DNA from: Candidatus Iainarchaeum sp.
Lineage (GTDB): Archaea; Iainarchaeota; Iainarchaeia; Iainarchaeales; VGJJ01
Assembly (NCBI GenBank): GCA_030688545.1
Contig: JAUYHT010000003.1
Span: forward strand, 1-6,255
Reading direction: 5' to 3'
DNA: 6,255 bases
In this document: positions 1-6,255 of the stretch, piece after piece
Numbering within the stretch: the stretch's first letter is position 1
Layout of the letters: each line of letters opens with the position of its first letter
Program-made: the position numbers and the translations under genes
The notes under the pieces: generated by a model
What the model was told of the DNA's origin: nothing
Seen by the model: only the letters and a program-made list of their open reading frames with translations
The model's database searches: none

Positions 1-219
1 GGATTGGGAGGACCCATTCACATCCAATTCCTGGCTGATAAACCCCGAATGGTCCAACGCCACAAATAAATCATCAACATACTGATCAGTAATGCGCCTT
101 TCTTCAAAGAGGGTCGCGGGTTGCGTGGGGAGGGAGCTGAATACTAATACCCCCACCACGAGGATGAGGGCTAACACCACGTCCGCGCTGAACGCAAATC
201 CCTGGGGGTTAGGTCGCAT
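1..219 (-). CDS. Class III signal peptide (archaeal type IV pilin-like) protein; 5' part only, runs off the left edge; absent from the supplied ORF track
   Basis: Reverse-complement translation from ATG (219..217) gives MRPNPQGFAFSADVVLALILVVGVLVFSSLPTQPATLFEERRITDQYVDDLFVALDHSGFISQELDVNGSSQS, open for all 73 codons to position 1. It has a short polar leader, G|F, then a roughly 20-residue hydrophobic helix. GGAGGT (complement 228..233) lies 8 nt upstream of the ATG. The start overlaps the end of the upstream gene by 11 nt. Confidence 0.6.
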   Translation of the reverse strand, partial: MRPNPQGFAFSADVVLALILVVGVLVFSSLPTQPATLFEERRITDQYVDDLFVALDHSGFISQELDVNGSSQS

Positions 220-724
220 ATACGGTGACCTCCACCAGGGTTTCTTTTCCATTGAGGGTGGCGAGGCGCTGCACCACGCTTCGATGGGCGGAGGAGGGAG
301 GAGCTTGTCCAGTGGCGAGGAATGGGCCTCCTGAGAATGTGATGTAGAATTCGAATGGGTTGACTGACAGCCTGGTTTTAGTGAACGCGTAGTCCAGATT
401 CCCCAGGTTCACGAATGCCACTACTTTATCGGGATCCAGAACCCGGTCTTTCTGGGCGAGGCCGAACGCCTTCACCTGGTTCAAGTCTGAAATGTCCTCC
501 CAATTGGATGGATCCCCGGGATTCTTGATGATGAACTCAGCGATGTTGGCGGCCACCACATCCAGCCCTTTCCGGGCGATGGATTGTTGGGTCTGGGATT
601 GGACGTCATTCATGTAGCCCAAAAGGCCCACCACAATGACCAGGAATAATCCGGTGGCGAATAATACGTCGGGCATGCTTACCTGCGCTTTGGGGGGAGC
701 GGGGGCGATTGGTAATGAATTCAT
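209..724 (-). CDS. Class III signal peptide (pilin-like) protein, 171 aa
   Basis: N-terminus MNSLPIAPAPPKA|QVSMPDVLFATGLFLVIVVGLLGY: Lys at -2, Ala at -1, Gln at +1, then a hydrophobic helix. The QVSM tetrapeptide is shared with the 532-aa protein. AGGTG (complement 730..734) lies 5 nt before the ATG. There is an ATGA start/stop overlap with the upstream gene at 721..724. The rest is soluble and beta-rich with no recognisable enzyme motif. Confidence 0.8.
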   Translation of the reverse strand: MNSLPIAPAPPKAQVSMPDVLFATGLFLVIVVGLLGYMNDVQSQTQQSIARKGLDVVAANIAEFIIKNPGDPSNWEDISDLNQVKAFGLAQKDRVLDPDKVVAFVNLGNLDYAFTKTRLSVNPFEFYITFSGGPFLATGQAPPSSAHRSVVQRLATLNGKETLVEVTVYAT

Positions 725-1875
725 GTGAACACCTGTTCCGCCACTATTTTCCCAAAGGGGTTGATGAGCGTGGCTTTAGTGCCGGGAATATTCCATAACG
801 TCTGGTTAAGGTCCAAATAGATGGTGGTAGGGGTATTGGTTCCCTGTCCGGTGTGAACCCGCGCGGCCCCATGGAGGATATAGGGTTCGGGAAACGTGAT
901 GAGGGGCACATCATCCCGGAGCAGGGTGAAATGGGATAGTTCCAATGATTGGAGGGCGAGGAATTCAAGGAATTCCTTGGCGATACTTCCTTCGTCGAAC
1001 TCCACCTCCGAGATGATGACTAATGGATTTCCATCCGGACCGAAGCCGGGGTTGTCATACCCGCAGTCGGCGCTGTAATAGAGGGGGATGATTTGGTAGA
1101 CGCACGAGGTACCGTCGCAGGAATACGCTTGCCATACTTTGGTCGTATCGACGCAAGTGAATGTGTCGGGGCCGCATGTTTCCTGTGTGCAGACCCCTCC
1201 TTCGTCATCGTCGGAGAGGAGCGCATCATCCCCGATAGCTTCCTCGGTATCAGTTTCGGGGGTGAAGGCCGCGGATTCGTTCCCCCAGACGCGGTCGAAT
1301 AGCACCCGGTACACGGACACGATGTGTTCTTCACAGGCCACCTCAATGACATCGGGGGCTTGCGCATACAGTCGGGGGTCAGTGCCGAATATCACCGATT
1401 CCCCATCAATGAGGAGGAAATTAGTGGCCACAAATTTGGTCACGGACTTAATACGAATGTGCGCCCCTTCGAGGAAGAATTGGGGGTTGAGGGTGGGGTC
1501 TAAGATCAATCGAACGGTTACCCCCCGCTTGATGGCCTGGCGCAAATGATCGCGGAACTCTTTAGGAGCGGGGGTGCGCAGGATGGCGTCGATTGTGTGA
1601 CTGGCCGAGTCCACCTGCACCACTATTTTCTCGAGGCAGTCAAGGTGAGTGCAATCGAATGAGAGGGAACATTGGTCATTAGCCAGGGCTTTGGCCGCTG
1701 ATACACTTAACCCGGGGATGACGTCCGGATTGACGTGGGGGGTGGTGTCCCCTGGAGCGGGGGGCAGAGGGTCAGGAAATAATAAGATGAGGGCGCCCGC
1801 CACGAGGATAAGGACAATGGGCCCCACTAACCATTTCCATTCGAAGCGGAAGGGAATAAGCTCAGGGGCGGCCAT
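721..1875 (-). CDS. Membrane-anchored protein: N-terminal TM helix, PLD/Nuc-like domain with degenerate HKD motif, acidic Cys-rich linker, C-terminal lamin-tail domain (LTD)
   Basis: TM anchor WKWLVGPIVLILVAGALILLF (aa 13-33). Residues ~78-197 fit the PLDc_2/Nuc pattern by eye (IDAIL..., LRQAIKRGVTVRLILD, ...FLLIDGESVIFGT..., ...VLFDRVW). Linker TPETDTEEAIGDDALLSDDDEG is followed by 6 Cys in aa 229-271. Residues ~284-383 fit the LTD pattern (VIISEVEFDEG...EFLEF...LSHFTLLRDD..ITFPE.YILHGAARVHTGQG...LWNIPGTKATLINPFGKIVAEQVF). GGTGATC (complement 1880..1886) lies 4 nt before the ATG. A 1-nt spacer separates it from the upstream stop. Confidence 0.85.
   Translation of the reverse strand: MAAPELIPFRFEWKWLVGPIVLILVAGALILLFPDPLPPAPGDTTPHVNPDVIPGLSVSAAKALANDQCSLSFDCTHLDCLEKIVVQVDSASHTIDAILRTPAPKEFRDHLRQAIKRGVTVRLILDPTLNPQFFLEGAHIRIKSVTKFVATNFLLIDGESVIFGTDPRLYAQAPDVIEVACEEHIVSVYRVLFDRVWGNESAAFTPETDTEEAIGDDALLSDDDEGGVCTQETCGPDTFTCVDTTKVWQAYSCDGTSCVYQIIPLYYSADCGYDNPGFGPDGNPLVIISEVEFDEGSIAKEFLEFLALQSLELSHFTLLRDDVPLITFPEPYILHGAARVHTGQGTNTPTTIYLDLNQTLWNIPGTKATLINPFGKIVAEQVFT
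727..1026 (-). other. Lamin-tail domain (LTD) coding segment, aa ~284-383 of the 384-aa protein
   Basis: By-eye match to the LTD consensus (IsEv....eFvEl.N....dLsGw.L.d.....y.fP....l.pg....v.tg.g........lWnn.gd.v.L.d..G..vd.v.y). Confidence 0.7.
1405..1428 (-). other. Degenerate HKD catalytic motif (A150-T-N152-F-L-L-I-D157) of the PLD-like domain
   Basis: Reverse complement of 1405..1428 reads GCC ACT AAT TTC CTC CTC ATT GAT = ATNFLLID. Against the canonical H-x-K-x4-D, His is replaced by Ala and Lys by Asn, while Asp is kept. The downstream GS.N is GTDP here. Confidence 0.7.
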
Positions 1876-1876
1876 C

Positions 1877-3475
1877 TCAGATCACCACCAGGTTGAGGTT
1901 ATCAAAACTAATAATGACGCCCTCTCGAGGAGTATCCCAGTCGCCCAAGCCCCCACCCAAATCAATGTAATAGGTCCCTGGTCCCGTGACCAAAGACGTG
2001 AGATTTTGGACATGAAATCGGGTGTCCGCCGAGGGGTTTTCTTTAAACCAAATCTCGGGGGTGGGATCGGCATCCACCGCACCAATGTCGAGGTCGCTTC
2101 CCAAAAACGTAATGGTGTTCTGGTCGTGGAACCGGAGCTTGACCCAGGATTCCTCTCCATTGTCCAAAGCATTGCTTCCCGTGGGATCGGGGTCAATGGA
2201 ATAAAGGAAGCTGAACCGGAGTTTCTTTCCAGCTGTGAGGAGGGAATACATATCCGCGTTCACGTCGAATTGTATTCCAAAAGCCCCGGAGGTGACCATG
2301 CCAATGGTGGCATTATCATCCGGGTTGATAGGAGAATTAGGCACGATCCCCGGCCCCCCCATGCGGAGGTCCAGACTTTGAGTGAGGGGGACTTGGGAAT
2401 CCGAGGTGTTCTTGTCATAATTGGGATCGGCATTGAACTGCACCCCCGCGGGGATGGTACCCCCATAGGTTAGCTTATCCCAGTCCCACCCATCATTCCC
2501 TATATTGAAATCAATTCCAAAGGTGTTGGCGACGCTGTTGACATCCGTGGAGAAATCCAATGGTTGGGGGAGATCATTCCCGTGTTCCCATAAGTCAATG
2601 AGATATCCTTGCTGGGTGAAGTTGACGTCGATGAACCCATAGTCGATGGAAATGGTTTGCCCCACCCCCGCGGGCTCATACGTCATGCGGATACGGGCAT
2701 TGTTAGCTTGGTTGTAGTCCGTGATGCACCAGCTCAAATCGGGAGATGAATAATAGGTTTCCGAAAAATAAGGGGTGTAGGGCTCGATATCCACCCATTG
2801 AGTGTTGTCCCAGCATTGCACCATGTTCTGAGGCCCGTTCAATCCCACGTGGTAGGATTCGAAGTGCTTGATGTGCACGAATACGGAGTTGATGATGTTG
2901 GCGCTGGTGAGCCCTAAATTGTTGAACCGGAACTCCACCCAATCCGGGTTCTCGTTGGGGTTGTCGTCGGAGATCGCATACAGCGCGTCATCGGCCCCTA
3001 CCTCCACCCTCCACGTCTGATTCTGGTCATCGATGAGGAGAAATATCCCATTGCTCACATCCCCACCCCCACTTGGGTCATTGGGGGGGGTGAATGGGTT
3101 GTAATTCGTATCATTCGTGAAGATGACCGTGCCATTCAGGTCGAATGCTTTCACAATGCCCCGGTAGAGTTGCACATTGGACACACTCCCTAATACGGGG
3201 CACAACGCGTCTCCCACCAGGACAAAATTGTTGGTGATGTTCGCGTCCTGCAACAGTTCGAATTTAGTCTCGGTGTAGGGGGGGTTGGAACTCATGTATG
3301 TGATAATGGAAGAAAGCTGGATGCACACCTCCTCCTCCCCCACATTCTGTTGAAGCCGGGCGGAGGATTGTTTGTTTTGTTCGATGAGGAGGAGCGCCAC
3401 GACGAAGAGCATCAGGAGGAAGAGGATGGAGGAAAGCACTTCCATGCTGACCTGGCCGGATTGAACGGGAGTCAT
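1877..3475 (-). CDS. Large class III signal peptide (pilin-like) protein, 532 aa, with extended beta-rich C-terminal domains; putative tip/adhesin subunit
   Basis: N-terminus MTPVQSG|QVSMEVLSSILFLLMLFVVALLLI with Gln at +1 and Glu at +5. GGTGA (complement 3480..3484) lies 4 nt before the ATG. There is an ATGA overlap with the upstream gene at 3472..3475. The remainder is N/D/T/G-rich with 8 N-x-S/T sequons and only 4 Cys. The C-terminal end ...GVIISFDNLNLVVI is reminiscent of lectin/CBM-type beta-sandwich terminal strands. Confidence 0.85.
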   Translation of the reverse strand: MTPVQSGQVSMEVLSSILFLLMLFVVALLLIEQNKQSSARLQQNVGEEEVCIQLSSIITYMSSNPPYTETKFELLQDANITNNFVLVGDALCPVLGSVSNVQLYRGIVKAFDLNGTVIFTNDTNYNPFTPPNDPSGGGDVSNGIFLLIDDQNQTWRVEVGADDALYAISDDNPNENPDWVEFRFNNLGLTSANIINSVFVHIKHFESYHVGLNGPQNMVQCWDNTQWVDIEPYTPYFSETYYSSPDLSWCITDYNQANNARIRMTYEPAGVGQTISIDYGFIDVNFTQQGYLIDLWEHGNDLPQPLDFSTDVNSVANTFGIDFNIGNDGWDWDKLTYGGTIPAGVQFNADPNYDKNTSDSQVPLTQSLDLRMGGPGIVPNSPINPDDNATIGMVTSGAFGIQFDVNADMYSLLTAGKKLRFSFLYSIDPDPTGSNALDNGEESWVKLRFHDQNTITFLGSDLDIGAVDADPTPEIWFKENPSADTRFHVQNLTSLVTGPGTYYIDLGGGLGDWDTPREGVIISFDNLNLVVI

Positions 3476-3903
3476 ATGTTCACCACGTGTACGTTTACAT
3501 CCCCCATCGTCACGCGCAAAGTATAGGGCCCTTGTTCGAAGAATAGGAATCGGGAATCGATATGGGCCTTGGTGAATGCAAACACATGAGTGGGGCTTCC
3601 CCCTTGGTGGAGGGTGGCGATCACATAGTTTTGGTCCACTCGCAATTCCGACAGGCCTTGAGGAAGGGTGATGTTCAAAAGAATGGAGTTGCCCGGCCCT
3701 TTGGCATAGACGAAGTCCACCGCCGAGGAGAGGGAGTCCACCGCGGCCTGCGTTTGGACAAGTTGGATGGATTGGGAATAGATGGTGAAAGCATACGCAA
3801 AAAGGATAACCACGACGATCAGGAGGAAGGTAGTGAAAATGAGGTATTCGAAACCCACTTGTCCTCGGGAAGATGCCATGAATCCTCCCATCGAAACCGC
3901 CAA
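3472..3903 (-). CDS. Small class III signal peptide (archaeal type IV pilin-like, DUF361-like) protein; first gene of the operon
   Basis: ...ASSRG|QVGFEYLIFTTFLLIVVVILFAYAF has Arg at -2, Gly at -1, Gln at +1 and Glu at +5. The start is uncertain. The ORF-track start at 3903 is a TTG preceded by GGAGG (complement 3913..3917) with a 9-nt spacer. In-frame ATGs at 3891 (MGGFMASS) and 3879 (MASSRGQ, preceded by GGAGGA) are alternatives giving shorter leaders. Confidence 0.8.
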   Translation of the reverse strand: MAVSMGGFMASSRGQVGFEYLIFTTFLLIVVVILFAYAFTIYSQSIQLVQTQAAVDSLSSAVDFVYAKGPGNSILLNITLPQGLSELRVDQNYVIATLHQGGSPTHVFAFTKAHIDSRFLFFEQGPYTLRVTMGDVNVHVVNI

Positions 3904-3949
3904 TAAAAAACCCCTCCGCGGAAAAGAGGGTAAAGGGCGGGAAATGGGT

Positions 3950-3999
3950 GGTTTATATTGGGGGATAGGCGCGTTTAAAGCCAGAATGACTTATGTATA
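3950..3999. promoter_or_regulatory. Divergent promoter region with candidate TATA-like boxes
   Basis: The 132-nt gap between the divergent starts at 3903 and 4036 contains TTTATATT (3952..3959), palindromic TTTAAA (3974..3979) and TTATGTATA (3991..3999). Their spacing is compatible with transcription starts roughly 25-30 nt away in either direction. No transcript data, so assignment to a strand is a guess. Confidence 0.35.
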
Positions 4000-4002
4000 G
4001 GC

Positions 4003-4031
4003 GAGTGGGGGCAAGGATAGGGGAGTGGGGG
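4003..4031 (+). repeat. Direct repeat GAGTGGGGG x2, 20 nt apart, in the leader of the plus-strand gene pair
   Basis: GAGTGGGGG occurs at 4003..4011 and 4023..4031. The second copy overlaps the SD-like GGAG/GGAGG just upstream of the ATG at 4036. Confidence 0.5.
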
Positions 4032-4035
4032 AGGC

Positions 4036-4614
4036 ATGACCGAGACGAAAGAAAGGTTCTACCGTGTTCTCCTTGAGAAATACGCGGGAATCATCAACCA
4101 GAACGAGCAGCGCACGGTAGGGGAGATCAAGGCGCTCGTCGACCCCATGGACCCGGGGGTGCAAGGGTTGCTCCAGGAATTCAAACCCACCCCATATACG
4201 TTTGAGCGGGATTATCTTTTCACGGCCCAGCAGGTGTTCGAGCACATCACCCAAGAAATCAAGTATGTTCCTAATGACTTGACTATCAATTTCTGGCTGA
4301 AGCCCCATGAAATACTGGCCAACAAAGTGGCCGATGATGAAGATTTGGCCGTGCTCGTATGCACGGTGTTACATGCGTTGGGGGACGAGAATGCCATGGT
4401 CGTGCTTATGGAATTAGAGAATCTGACGACGCACGCGGTGGTTTTGACAACGGTGAATGGGAAGACACTGCTCCTGGACCCCTGCACGGGACATAATTTT
4501 TTCAAGTATCATGGCGAAAAATCCCATGTGTTCAAGCGGTATCATTTCAATGGCCAACGAATCAAGCGGGCCTTGTATCGGTTTAACGCGCAGATGTACG
4601 AACAGTTCATCTGA
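4036..4614 (+). CDS. Transglutaminase-like (papain-fold) domain protein, 192 aa, with the catalytic Cys position occupied by Asp
   Basis: ILANKVADDEDLAVLVCTVLHALGDENAMVV...THAVVLTTVNGKTLLLDP aligns by eye to the Transglut_core pattern G.C.dFA.lfvallRalG...HaWvev....g.W..lDp. D-L-A matches d-F-A. His133 (4432..4434) and Asp148 (4477..4479) are in place. Asp101 (4336..4338) sits at the nucleophile position. That this ORF is coding is well supported (longest ORF, SD-like GGAG upstream); the fold assignment is less certain. Confidence 0.6.
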   Translation: MTETKERFYRVLLEKYAGIINQNEQRTVGEIKALVDPMDPGVQGLLQEFKPTPYTFERDYLFTAQQVFEHITQEIKYVPNDLTINFWLKPHEILANKVADDEDLAVLVCTVLHALGDENAMVVLMELENLTTHAVVLTTVNGKTLLLDPCTGHNFFKYHGEKSHVFKRYHFNGQRIKRALYRFNAQMYEQFI

Positions 4615-4659
4615 CGGGGTGGGTGACATATAGATAAAGAGAAAGGAGTTGTGAGATTA

Positions 4660-5763
4660 ATGGAATGGGAAGTGCATGGGACGGCCTTGCGTCAATTAGC
4701 ACAGTATTGGCATTCTATTTTAGAGGGGGGATATGTGCAGCAACTCCGGGGGGTGGGAACAGACACCTTTGTTCTGCGGATGCACACCAAAAATGGGAAT
4801 ATTGAATGGGCTATTCGACTGCCTGGGGTCATTACCCAAACCCTCCGGAAATGGACGCCCGAAGAAAAACAGCCAGGATTCGTGAATGCCACCAAGACAG
4901 GGTTGGCGAATGCCCGAATCATTGGAGTAAGGCAGCATGGGATGGACCGCGTGCTCGTCCTGGAATGCGAGGAAGGGTCATTAGTCATCGAATTGTTCGG
5001 AAAGGGAAATCTGGTGTGGGTAACATCCAATGGGACGATTGGCGCGGTGCTCCATGCCAAAGAATGGCGTACCCGCACGATGAAACGAAACCACCCTTAT
5101 GTGTTTCCCCCAGGCCCCCCCGATTGGGAAGCATTACCCGCAACGGGGGACAATACTCCTTTTGAGGGAACATGGGGCGCGTGGTGGGTGACACGAATGG
5201 GGGTTCCTCGAGAGTGGGTGGAATATGTGTGCGAGCGAGTACGCGTGGAAAAGGATGCCCCGTGGACAATGGATGCGGCGACATGGGATTTGGTTAGGCA
5301 TACTTTGAAAGAGTTGGTTGCATCACTCGTGCCCCAATTTGAAATAATTAAGAGTGAAAAGAAGAATGTCGTACTAGTTCTGCGTGTGGACGACACCGTA
5401 AAAGAAGGATTAGATCAAGAGGCGTTGTTTTCCCGACTGGATGCCATTTTGGTTGAAACCACTCCGGAGGCTGCCCCATTGTCAACGACAGATCAGGCAC
5501 GGAAGGCCTTGGAGGTGAACCACGCGCGGCAGGTGGCGATGATGAAGGCGTGGGAAACGGAAGCGGCATCTTTACAAGTCAGTGGGGAATGGGTCTACTC
5601 TCATTTCGAAATGGTGGAGGAATTGCTCGAGGCGGTGCGGCGGGGACGCGCGTTAAACGTGTCGGATGCGCACGCCCTCTTTGAATTGAAGAAGATCGTT
5701 GGGGAAGTGACTAAAGTGGATGTGGCGGCCGGAACGATCGAATTGGAAGTGGAAAAGGAGTAA
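4660..5763 (+). CDS. NFACT family protein (RqcH/Rqc2/NEMF-type ribosome quality control factor homologue), N-terminal half only: NFACT-N + HhH + first coiled-coil helix
   Basis: Strong by-eye match to NFACT-N: GGYVQQL, PGFVNATKTGLANARIIGVRQHGMDRVLVLE (conserved D-R at 4945..4950), LVIELFGKGNLVWVTS, RNHPYVFPP. This is followed by an HhH-like WWVTRMGVPREWVEYVCERV and a long helix ending ...GEWVYSHFEMVEELLEAV. The ORF track starts at GTG 4651. I prefer ATG 4660, which is 11 nt after GGAG (4645..4648), versus 2 nt for the GTG. Confidence 0.85.
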   Translation: MEWEVHGTALRQLAQYWHSILEGGYVQQLRGVGTDTFVLRMHTKNGNIEWAIRLPGVITQTLRKWTPEEKQPGFVNATKTGLANARIIGVRQHGMDRVLVLECEEGSLVIELFGKGNLVWVTSNGTIGAVLHAKEWRTRTMKRNHPYVFPPGPPDWEALPATGDNTPFEGTWGAWWVTRMGVPREWVEYVCERVRVEKDAPWTMDAATWDLVRHTLKELVASLVPQFEIIKSEKKNVVLVLRVDDTVKEGLDQEALFSRLDAILVETTPEAAPLSTTDQARKALEVNHARQVAMMKAWETEAASLQVSGEWVYSHFEMVEELLEAVRRGRALNVSDAHALFELKKIVGEVTKVDVAAGTIELEVEKE

Positions 5764-5794
5764 TGGGCCCTCAGGGGAGTGGGTCCCCATGGTG

Positions 5795-6061
5795 TTATTC
5801 GCCCATACTGGTTATTTCGCGCTCGTCCACGATGAATACATCGGAGACCGCCGTGACGGCCGCATACGGGACTTGAATAATCCGGTCCTGCAGGTTGGCT
5901 TTCTTGATGACCCTGGATTCGGCATCCACTTCGACGATTAAGGCCTCAATATTCCCCGTTCCTTCGTCCACGAGCAGATCGGAGAGACGCCCTACTTCAT
6001 CCCCTCGATTGGTAATAACGCGTTTGGTCGCCAATTGGCGGGCAATGGCATATTTGTACAT
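5795..6061 (-). CDS. Stand-alone PRC-barrel domain protein, 88 aa
   Basis: ARQLATKRVITNRGDEVGRLSDLLVDEGTGNIEALIVEVD...IIQVPYAAVTAVSDVFIVD fits the archaeal PRC-barrel pattern (l.gk.V....G..lG.v.Dl.vD...g.ie.Livev.....i.vPy..V..v.d.iiv). GGGGG (complement 6071..6075) lies 9 nt before the ATG. The gene is convergent with the NFACT gene. Confidence 0.85.
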   Translation of the reverse strand: MYKYAIARQLATKRVITNRGDEVGRLSDLLVDEGTGNIEALIVEVDAESRVIKKANLQDRIIQVPYAAVTAVSDVFIVDEREITSMGE

Positions 6062-6097
6062 ATTCTAAAACCCCCTTGTGCATCATGGACCACGCTG

Positions 6098-6112
6098 AGC
6101 TATAAAAGGCTT
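6098..6112 (-). promoter_or_regulatory. Candidate BRE/TATA element for the PRC-barrel gene
   Basis: The minus strand reads GGAAAAGCCTTTTATAGC, a purine-rich stretch followed by TTTTATAG. It is centred about 43 nt upstream of the ATG at 6061, which would give a short leader containing the SD-like GGGGG. Confidence 0.3.
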
Positions 6113-6143
6113 TTCCTTGACCCGTGGCCCGCAGCCCAATGGT

Positions 6144-6173
6144 CCTCCCCGGCGAAAATCTTCCGGGGGGAGG
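6144..6173. repeat. GC-rich inverted repeat (hairpin) in the right-hand intergenic region
   Basis: CCTCCCC (6144..6150) pairs with GGGGAGG (6167..6173). Alternatively CCCCGG (6147..6152) pairs perfectly with CCGGGG (6163..6168), with loop CGAAAATCTT. Function unknown: possibly a terminator if a minus-strand gene ends at 6191, otherwise a regulatory or structural element. Confidence 0.3.
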
Positions 6174-6233
6174 CGTTTATCATGTAGGGTTTAGAGCTTT
6201 TTGATGGGCTTCCGGGGTTTGGAGGGGGGATAC

Positions 6234-6255
6234 ATGTCCCGCAGGGCCTCGCGTT
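6234..6255 (+). CDS. Possible 5' end of a plus-strand gene (MSRRASR...) running off the right edge
   Basis: ATG at 6234 is preceded by GGAGG (6221..6225) with an 8-nt spacer, the spacing seen before other genes here. An A/T-rich stretch GTTTATCATGTAGGGTTTAGAGCTTTTTGAT (6174..6204) upstream could hold a TATA box. Only 7 codons are visible. A minus-strand reading ending at 6191 is an equally open alternative. Confidence 0.25.

Follow-up and report, generated by a model that had tools for sequence, protein, structure and literature searches.

What does a protein that has kept the fold of a nuclease and lost its catalytic residues do in the middle of a block of pilin-like genes? This question is raised by a stretch of 6,255 nucleotides from the archaeon Candidatus Iainarchaeum sp. 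(contig JAUYHT010000003.1, positions 1 to 6,255; hereafter the window), in which a gene on the minus strand, here called the target, encodes a membrane-anchored protein with a domain of the phospholipase D (PLD) fold and a C-terminal lamin-tail domain (LTD). The reading that we somewhat favor is that the target is a non-catalytic binding or adaptor subunit of the cell surface, a lineage-specific accessory of a type IV pilus-like machine that stems from extracellular PLD-LTD and SNase-Cys-LTD nucleases. An earlier note, made from the letters of the window, had described a PLD pseudoenzyme fused to a Cys-rich linker and an LTD, and its coordinates and counts for the open reading frame, the ATNFLLID and GTDP motifs, the acidic stretch and the ten Cys residues (six of them within 43 residues) proved exact. 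The parts of the gene are as follows, with residues numbered in amino acids (aa).

721..1875, minus strand: the target gene, an open reading frame of 384 aa, with transmembrane anchor, stalk, dead PLD-fold domain, acidic linker, Cys-rich module and LTD
1774..1845, minus strand: N-terminal signal-anchor or transmembrane helix, aa 11-34, probably uncleaved; the helix spans aa 14-32 in the structural model
1708..1773, minus strand: Pro-rich stalk, aa 35-56; predicted local distance difference test score (pLDDT) below 50 at aa 42-53, mean column identity 0.44
1267..1707, minus strand: single PLD/Nuc-fold domain, aa 57-203, catalytically dead, as judged from a PLDc_2 match, profile matches, Zucchini and Nuc alignments and Foldseek
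1405..1428, minus strand: degenerate HKD motif A150-T-N152-F-L-L-I-D157 (ATNFLLID, aa 150-157), from column counts in alignments
1375..1386, minus strand: G164-T-D-P167 (GTDP, aa 164-167), counterpart of GSxN/GSNP, from column counts
1192..1266, minus strand: acidic flexible linker, aa 204-228, with the invariant pair E211-E212; column identity 0.56 and a dip in pLDDT
1051..1191, minus strand: Cys-rich beta-hairpin module, aa 229-275, with six conserved Cys; strands at aa 238-265 in the model
724..1050, minus strand: LTD, an Ig-like beta-sandwich, aa 276-384, from Foldseek matches to lamin A/C and Pfam LTD matches of homologues

The full-length architecture of the target is found in 34 clusters of homologues at 90% identity, all of which are 382-391 aa long and 51-58% identical to the window protein. 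The target alone matches the Pfam PLDc_2 model (PF13091) over aa 87-164 with an E value of 4.2e-4 and 20.6 bits, under the gathering score of 27, and PLDc_2 matches were obtained for 30 of the 34 homologues (best E 3.6e-5). When 1.84 billion representative proteins were searched with a family profile, its PLD region found matches down to E 2e-10, the matched proteins themselves scoring 103-182 bits on PLDc_2. The structure of the target was modeled with AlphaFold2 from the 34 homologues (mean pLDDT 81), and the model shows in order a helix (aa 14-32), a disordered stalk, an alpha/beta domain at about aa 57-203, a flexible linker, a beta-hairpin (aa 238-265) and a beta-sandwich (aa 286-382); in the PLD region the pLDDT is mostly 84-94 over aa 61-210, with a drop to 71 at aa 141-150. 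Foldseek comparison of this PLD part with the PDB gave, with a probability of 1.00, Nuc of Salmonella (1BYR; TM-score 0.72 normalized to the target, root-mean-square deviation 3.0 over 151 columns), NucT of H. pylori (6EHI; 0.70) and Zucchini/PLD6 (4GEL and 4GGJ; about 0.6), and further matches to PLD3/4, vaccinia F13, the FAM83 pseudo-PLD domain and TrmB/TrmBL2. The PLD similarity is beyond chance, though it stays under the Pfam cut-off for the single protein, and the scaffold recognized in the earlier note is upheld together with its count of one PLD unit per chain, on which Pfam, the model and Foldseek agree. The likeness to Nuc, NucT and Zucchini extends to the single unit itself and to scaffold motifs (…A..RGV.V…, …D157…, G164-S/T), that to Zucchini also to the Cys pair just ahead of the first helix; moreover, a membrane-anchored relative (P0061) exists among the single-HKD PLD nucleases, as the target is anchored.

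The catalytic columns were fixed by three independent alignments. A phmmer comparison with Drosophila Zucchini pairs its mHnKfciiDg with vAtNfLLiDg of the target, the family profile aligns to mouse Zucchini/PLD6 in the same register and pairs GSlN with Gs.d, and an hmmalign alignment of 68 remote PLD-domain relatives yields 80 aligned domains in which the columns of A150, N152 and D157 hold H, K and D. The residues of the 34 homologues at these and the following columns are given below.

Position 150 (His column): Ala in 29, Thr in 4, Gly in 1
Position 152 (Lys column): Asn in 34
Position 157 (Asp column): Asp in 34
Position 164 (Gly): Gly in 34
Position 165 (Ser column): Ser or Thr in 31
Position 166: Asp in 21, Asn in 12
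Position 167 (canonical Asn column): Pro in 29, Ser in 3, Ala in 2

The pattern [A/T/G]-x-N-x4-D occurs in 34/34 homologues and in all 17 distinct genomic-locus copies examined, 14 of which come from a scan of species-representative genomes, and none of these proteins carries an intact HKD. The alignments place no His or Lys at the catalytic positions, and no invariant His was found anywhere in the PLD domain among the 34 homologues; one near-invariant His, at position 87, is Gln in the window protein. PLD-superfamily catalysis proceeds via a phospho-histidine intermediate with His as the nucleophile (PMC6008594), and with this His lost the target domain is therefore regarded as a pseudoenzyme. 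Compared to Nuc, NucT and Zucchini, the changes of His to Ala, Thr or Gly, of Lys to Asn and of the GSxN Asn to Pro would leave no phospho-histidine chemistry. Because the HKD replacement is conserved in every orthologue, the alignments identify the target as a real, conserved pseudoenzyme and not as an assembly or sequencing artifact. The replacement of HKD by A-x-N, which the earlier note had read from one protein, is hence a property of the whole family. Its view of GTDP as a degenerate GS.N holds in part, since the Asn has indeed given way to Pro, but in many of the nearest active relatives the motif is GSNP and not GSxN, so that the family consensus G-[ST]-[DN]-P is, as far as the alignments tell, a mostly retained motif and not a fully degenerate one. 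N152, F153, D157, G164, Y170, A171 and D175 are invariant in the family, and the conservation indicates strong purifying selection on the target, including its old active-site loops.

The protein's C-terminal half begins with the linker, in which the acidic stretch TPETDTEEAIGDDALLSDDDEG (inside aa 204-228) has 10 Asp or Glu per 25 residues and no Lys or Arg. The ten Cys residues lie at positions 69, 75, 80, 181, 229, 234, 241, 253, 258 and 271, and the six columns of the Cys-rich module are kept in 33-34 of the 34 homologues. This module (CxxxxC…GTTK…Y.C….C.Y……..DCGY) is also present in P0063, a nuclease composed of SNase, Cys module and LTD. The LTD had been called clear, which is borne out by the fold and by the homologues but not by a direct match of the window protein, for which no hit to Pfam LTD (PF00932) was obtained at E<=1. 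LTD matches were found for 30 of the 34 homologues (best E 2.4e-7, under the gathering score of 34.3), and the LTD region of the family profile has matches down to E 1e-21, to proteins that score 62-309 bits on LTD. In addition, Foldseek aligns the C-terminal part of the target with the Ig folds of lamin A/C, B1 and B2 (TM-score 0.55-0.65, 19-22% identity, E 2e-5 to 2e-4), lamin A/C reaching 0.62-0.65 at E 2e-5.

All 34 homologues and the 17 loci keep the pair E211-E212 (window 1240-1245) unchanged, in a linker that otherwise varies and is modeled with low confidence. The pair may serve as a short linear motif, such as a ligand of the metal ion-dependent adhesion site (MIDAS) of g5, a VWA-domain protein encoded in the same operon; this idea is weakened by a Woesearchaeota locus that has a giant pilin-like protein with VWA and has no target.

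A membrane anchor had also been proposed, and the model places a helix at aa 14-32. The transmembrane segment has a column identity of 0.71, against 0.44 for the stalk, with F11, W15, P19, A26 and P34 invariant, and is as conserved as the globular domains; we infer from this an uncleaved anchor whose helix would make specific contacts in the membrane. Class III (prepilin) signals follow a rule of the FlaFind type, according to which a short charged leader ending in [KR]-[GA] is cut off before a hydrophobic N-terminal helix. Such a signal was ruled out for the target, whose N-terminus follows the pattern …IPxRF[EDQ]xKWLxGP… across orthologues and has no [KR]-[GA] site and no Gly or Ala at -1 in any of them, while five of its neighbors have one. 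Lys and Arg residues ahead of the helix, acidic residues behind it, the ten conserved Cys and the LTD point to a topology with the N-terminus inside and the C-terminus, hence the globular domains, outside. The Cys residues may form five disulfides, or C69, C75, C80 and C181 may make up a metal site. By analogy to single-HKD PLDs, the target could be a homodimer.

The gene was said to be co-translated with pilin-like genes, and the neighbors that lie in the window on the same strand are the following.

3472..3903, minus strand: g1, a small pilin-like protein with a class III signal (…RGQ/VGFEYL); the motif is kept in 5 loci, and the probable true start is the ATG at 3879
1877..3475, minus strand: g2, a pilin-like protein of 532 aa (SGQ/VSMEVL), from the open reading frame list and the motif; no Pfam domain
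209..724, minus strand: g4, a pilin-like protein of 171 aa (KAQ/VSMPDVL), from the open reading frame list and the motif; weak match to DUF7287
1..219, minus strand: g5, N-terminal 73 aa only, whose translation matches the N-terminus of the 1209-aa protein with LVIVD and VWA in locus L001

The claim of co-translation is supported by the junctions. Those of g1 with g2 and of the target with g4 are 4-nt ATGA overlaps, the g2 stop lies 1 nt ahead of the ATG of the target, and the start of g5 overlaps g4 by 11 nt in the window as it does in L001. The context beyond the window was read from four orthologous loci on long contigs (L001, L002, L004 and L005; hereafter the long contigs), one of which is the complete 1.05-Mb Ca. 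Iainarchaeum chromosome CP064981.1. All four have the same ten-gene operon, a complete type IV pilus-like one, in the order g1, g2, target, g4, g5 (1050-1200 aa, LVIVD and VWA) and g6 (a pilin-like protein of about 330 aa), after which come a transmembrane protein of about 376 aa that weakly matches PKD, a protein whose C-terminus weakly resembles a winged helix-turn-helix, an ATPase of the T2SSE family and two T2SSF/TadC-like membrane proteins. The target is thus encoded with pilins, ATPase and T2SSF/TadC in the long contigs; in the window, the pilin genes and the same upstream neighbors are present. The class III signal, [KR]-[GA] followed by a hydrophobic helix, is conserved in g1, g2, g4 and g5 and, in the orthologous loci, in g6. 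Operon membership is observed directly, as are the domain identities, the loss of catalytic residues and the conservation, and from it we infer an association of the product with the pilus. The distribution was surveyed by scanning species-representative genomes with a g2 alignment, which gave 25 loci; wherever g2 is close (54-58% identity) and the DNA continues, the target lies directly downstream of it (15/15 loci). The target was not found outside this operon: it forms one 50%-identity cluster and has the same context in every locus examined.

In the reading favored here, an uncleaved N-terminal transmembrane helix would hold the target in the cell's own membrane, that of an Iainarchaeota-type DPANN archaeon, as a bitopic surface protein, and the short Pro-rich stalk would display the PLD/Nuc-fold domain, the disulfide-rich or metal-binding mini-module and the LTD outside. 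The PLD domain, with its His replaced by Ala, Thr or Gly, its Lys by Asn and the GSxN Asn mostly by Pro, would be incapable of the PLD reaction, and its old active-site pocket would be maintained as a binding site rather than decaying, because the remaining old active-site loops are nearly invariant. The protein would be made from one polycistronic message together with five prepilin-like proteins, and the machine would consist of the T2SSE ATPase and two TadC-like platform proteins, of which the target would be a fixed accessory in one lineage-specific version. Its most likely ancestors are the extracellular nucleases of the PLD-LTD and SNase-Cys-LTD kind that are frequent in related archaea, and its present role, at the cell surface or the base of the pilus, would be that of a binding or adaptor module without enzymatic activity.

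Several observations weigh against this reading. Nine of the loci found in the scan are distant and share with g2 its C-terminal module alone, at 30-46% identity. These nine, from another Iainarchaeum clade, Woesearchaeota and other metagenome-assembled genomes (MAGs), include none with a PLD or LTD protein. The six of them that were read through (L022, L023, L025, L026, L028 and L029) have pilin-like N-termini, and four distant contigs have TadC-like multi-pass open reading frames together with one of ATPase size, T2SSE being confirmed in L026 only. Pilus assembly in itself accordingly does not require the target, whose connection with the pilus could be only regulatory or genomic. The window itself ends short of the ATPase and TadC genes, and the conservation of the old pocket was judged from sequence. 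Furthermore, a predicted TM-score (pTM) of merely 0.63 makes the arrangement of the domains in the model uncertain, and a cut by signal peptidase behind the transmembrane helix is possible. The distant pilus loci that have no target lead us to regard it as a lineage-specific accessory and not as a core assembly factor. In this form the earlier suggestion of an adaptor for the co-translated pilins is plausible, whereas a general pilin receptor is not in keeping with related pilus loci that do without the target.

What the protein binds, if it binds at all, can be considered from the pocket and its surroundings. One explanation is that a dead nuclease serves as a DNA receptor, which binds extracellular DNA uncut and passes it to the pilus-like machine for uptake or scavenging, as ComEA or DNA-binding minor pilins do in bacteria; we hold this to be unlikely, and more doubtful still is its extended form, in which the target would be the surface receptor for DNA or nucleotide polymers of a DPANN pilus-based uptake machine and, as an archaeal functional analogue of ComEA or DNA-binding minor pilins that was made from an inactivated extracellular nuclease, would capture environmental or host DNA undegraded for the pilus to carry to the membrane. 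The best structural and sequence relatives of the target are indeed the nucleases Nuc, NucT and Zucchini, the Cys module and LTD are common to SNase-LTD and PLD-LTD extracellular nucleases, and the genome is about 1.05 Mb. In some archaea, natural transformation depends on type IV-like pili. The LTD of the extracellular nuclease ExeM contributes to its activity in vitro (PMC6085458). However, no DNA channel or ComEC-like gene was found in the operons of the long contigs, and three features of the sequence argue against a retained phosphate site, whether for DNA or for a lipid head group: the changes of His to Ala, Lys to Asn and Asn to Pro, by which both cationic phosphate ligands (His and Lys) are lost; residue 166, which is Asp in 21/34 and Asn in 12/34; and an ectodomain pI of 4.4, with a range of 4.13-4.52 across all family members. 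Retained binding of phosphate or DNA is therefore doubtful, given the loss of His and Lys and the acidic ectodomain, and the charge changes would favor a protein partner or a glycan over a phosphodiester as the ligand. The charge argument is nonetheless weak because active relatives are often acidic too; the median pI of the PLD domain is 5.8 in the target family and 5.35 in active remote relatives, which does not discriminate between them, and charge was rejected as an uninformative test of DNA binding. A glycan or sugar could be bound in the way of the HKD-less TrmB effector, the ligand being N-glycans of pilins or S-layer or a host glycan, and the protein would then tether or orient the pilus base or act in adhesion. 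The pocket, which appears polar and acidic rather than cationic, the Foldseek matches to TrmB and TrmBL2 over 200-233 columns, and matches of 24/34 homologues to Pfam Regulator_TrmB (best E 9.4e-6; the window protein, at E 0.0086, is under the threshold) are consistent with this, as is one source that labels a homologue a TrmB sugar-binding-domain protein. We nevertheless consider this quite unlikely: the genuine HKD enzymes P0050, P0055 and P0061 match the TrmB model equally well or better, which makes the TrmB signal one of superfamily level and the label a cross-match, and the root-mean-square deviation to TrmB structures is 10-20 Å. A specific kinship to the TrmB sugar-binding domain was ruled out on the same grounds, and the target also differs in layout from TrmB regulators, having no helix-turn-helix and a transmembrane helix at its N-terminus.

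Two other explanations set aside either the loss of catalysis or the pilus. The target might still be an enzyme in which other residues, for example D157, D166, D175 and K143, or a bound metal, hydrolyze a phosphoester or another bond. Several acidic or polar residues near the old site are invariant and the four conserved Cys of the PLD domain could hold a metal, but all characterized PLD-superfamily catalysis uses phospho-histidine (PMC6008594), and in a domain with no invariant His, with Gln in place of the near-invariant His87 in the window protein, and with the Lys and the GSxN Asn gone, an enzyme appears very improbable. Alternatively, the target could be a surface protein unrelated to the pilus, that is, a structural protein of the envelope or associated with the S-layer whose gene is merely embedded in the pilin block. 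The distant versions of the operon that do without it would be explained in this way, and LTDs have been proposed to direct proteins generally to membranes or membrane-associated structures (PMC6085458). Its coding region, however, has the same position in every locus with a close g2 and overlaps or abuts its neighbors there, and the single 50%-identity cluster is absent outside this operon among the loci examined, from which such an independent role appears improbable.

PLD-fold pseudoenzymes are known from the eukaryotic FAM83 and PLD5 proteins and from the cytoplasmic TrmB regulators, which offer precedents for a binding role. The FAM83 DUF1669/SACK1 domain (5LZK and 4URJ) and the TrmB/TrmBL2 effector domain (2F5T and 5BPD) have the PLD fold and no working HKD, match the target in Foldseek with E values of 1e-5 to 7e-7, and are used for binding, of CK1 by FAM83 and of sugars by TrmB. 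In FAM83 the His is missing and the Asp region of the pseudo-HKD is needed for binding of the protein partner CK1 (PMC6008594); the counterpart of this retained Asp in the target, D157, is invariant. The target stands apart from both through its transmembrane anchor, its many Cys residues and its fused LTD; FAM83 proteins belong to the cytosol of vertebrates, TrmB regulates transcription in the cytoplasm and begins with a winged helix-turn-helix, and the sequences show no kinship more specific than that of the superfamily. The target differs from Nuc, NucT and Zucchini in turn by the added Cys-rich module and LTD and by being encoded in a pilus operon. Extracellular fusions of hydrolases with LTDs (for example ExeM of Shewanella, or the PLDx2-LTD and SNase-LTD proteins from uncultured bacteria and archaea) resemble it in that a C-terminal LTD stands behind a nuclease-type domain in a secreted or anchored protein; unlike the target, they keep their catalytic residues, and they were not found in pilus operons among the loci examined. 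As regards genomic setting, the target can be compared to PilY1 and the TadG-type VWA proteins in minor-pilin operons of bacterial type IV pili, which are likewise encoded by a non-pilin gene amid pilin genes and co-translated, and the target operon also has a protein with VWA and LVIVD; no sequence or fold relationship exists, and the transmembrane anchor of the target makes a location at the pilus tip unlikely. This comparison draws partly on the published census of archaeal pili (PMC4858521).

The relatives of the target also bear on its origin. P0050 (in a Woesearchaeota cluster) and P0055 are PLDs with two HKD motifs, P0061 consists of a transmembrane segment and a PLD with one HKD, P0042 combines a PLD with two HKD motifs and an LTD, and P0063 has the SNase, Cys module and LTD mentioned above. 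Among these part-sharing nucleases from uncultured organisms, the sole named source is a Woesearchaeota (DPANN) MAG protein in the cluster of P0050. The simplest history suggested by the sequences would be an anchored nuclease-Cys-LTD protein in which catalysis was then lost. In addition, the metagenomic library holds two degenerate PLD-like proteins with a transmembrane anchor, P0117 (Y-x-N-x4-D) and P0171 (E-x-N-x4-D, with a coiled coil and two dead repeats), so that HKD has been lost more than once in surface-anchored proteins of the PLD fold. The 34 clusters of the target family merge into one 50%-identity cluster plus fragments, and the named sources of homologues are 'archaeon' MAGs and Candidatus Iainarchaeum; one homologue contig is labeled Thaumarchaeota, probably a label from binning. 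An origin from a defense system was considered as well, and PADLOC gave no match for the target or its neighbors.

In the literature that we searched, no paper describes a PLD-LTD protein from archaeal pilus loci or a surface-exposed PLD pseudoenzyme of a pilus operon. The census of archaeal type IV pili makes no mention of PLD, phospholipase or lamin (PMC4858521), and according to a groundwater study, DPANN genomes lack components of type IV pili (10.1101/2020.05.14.094862). Iainarchaeota are uncultured and their surface biology is essentially undescribed; if the target is a true pilus subunit or partner, it would provide a conserved handle on what their pilus is for, be it attachment, glycan recognition or DNA capture. 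It would also be a clean natural example of a nuclease architecture, made of catalytic domain, Cys module and LTD, that was turned into a binding protein. The observation itself is solid and its context informative, but with so narrow a family, pseudoenzymes being common in general and the function being deduced, the finding is useful rather than surprising.

Some features of the neighboring genes deserve mention in their own right. The protein g5 (L001 11684-15313) is 1050-1200 aa long and joins an N-terminus of the prepilin kind to LVIVD beta-propeller repeats and a VWA domain; it is a modular, adhesin-like pilin that recalls bacterial proteins of the PilY1/TadG type. The last 240 or so residues of g2, which include a GNDGWDW motif, are found again at the C-terminal end of pilin-like giants of 680-1630 aa in other DPANN pilus loci (L022-L030), which suggests a shared, undescribed head module of pilins. 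In L004 (17513-20503) the T2SSE ATPase has 996 aa and is split by an intein (Intein_splicing and LAGLIDADG_3), its orthologues being 496 aa long. The divergent upstream neighbors in the loci match window 4036-6061 and encode transglutaminase-like, NFACT_N and PRC-barrel proteins. The first of these (4036-4614, plus strand) is a small protein resembling transglutaminase and CEP76 peptidase (DUF553) and is a conserved divergent neighbor in all loci examined. The next (4651-5763, plus strand) is an RqcH/NFACT-like gene that has the NFACT_N part only, with 370 aa against the 645 positions of the archaeal RqcH model and 126.7 bits where its cut-off is 400; in the long contigs, too, a gene of this short form (290-371 aa) occupies the position. 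No RNA genes were detected in the window by ARAGORN (0) or by Rfam at gathering thresholds (0).

Between the two divergent gene sets, a G-rich element with TTTTTATT (around 3903-3914) upstream of g1 is conserved in the long contigs. It looks like an archaeal TATA box placed about 25 nt before the second ATG of g1 (3879), and the g1 product probably starts there as MASSRGQV…, nearly leaderless, and not at the TTG at 3903. A terminator-like hairpin at 3911-3930 was considered for the same place and rejected: the hairpin is not conserved in the orthologous loci, and the conserved part, namely the G-rich element with its adjoining motif, is better read as the TATA box. A second conserved motif, ATATACATAAG (3987-3999), lies in the same intergenic region and may serve the divergent transglutaminase-like gene.

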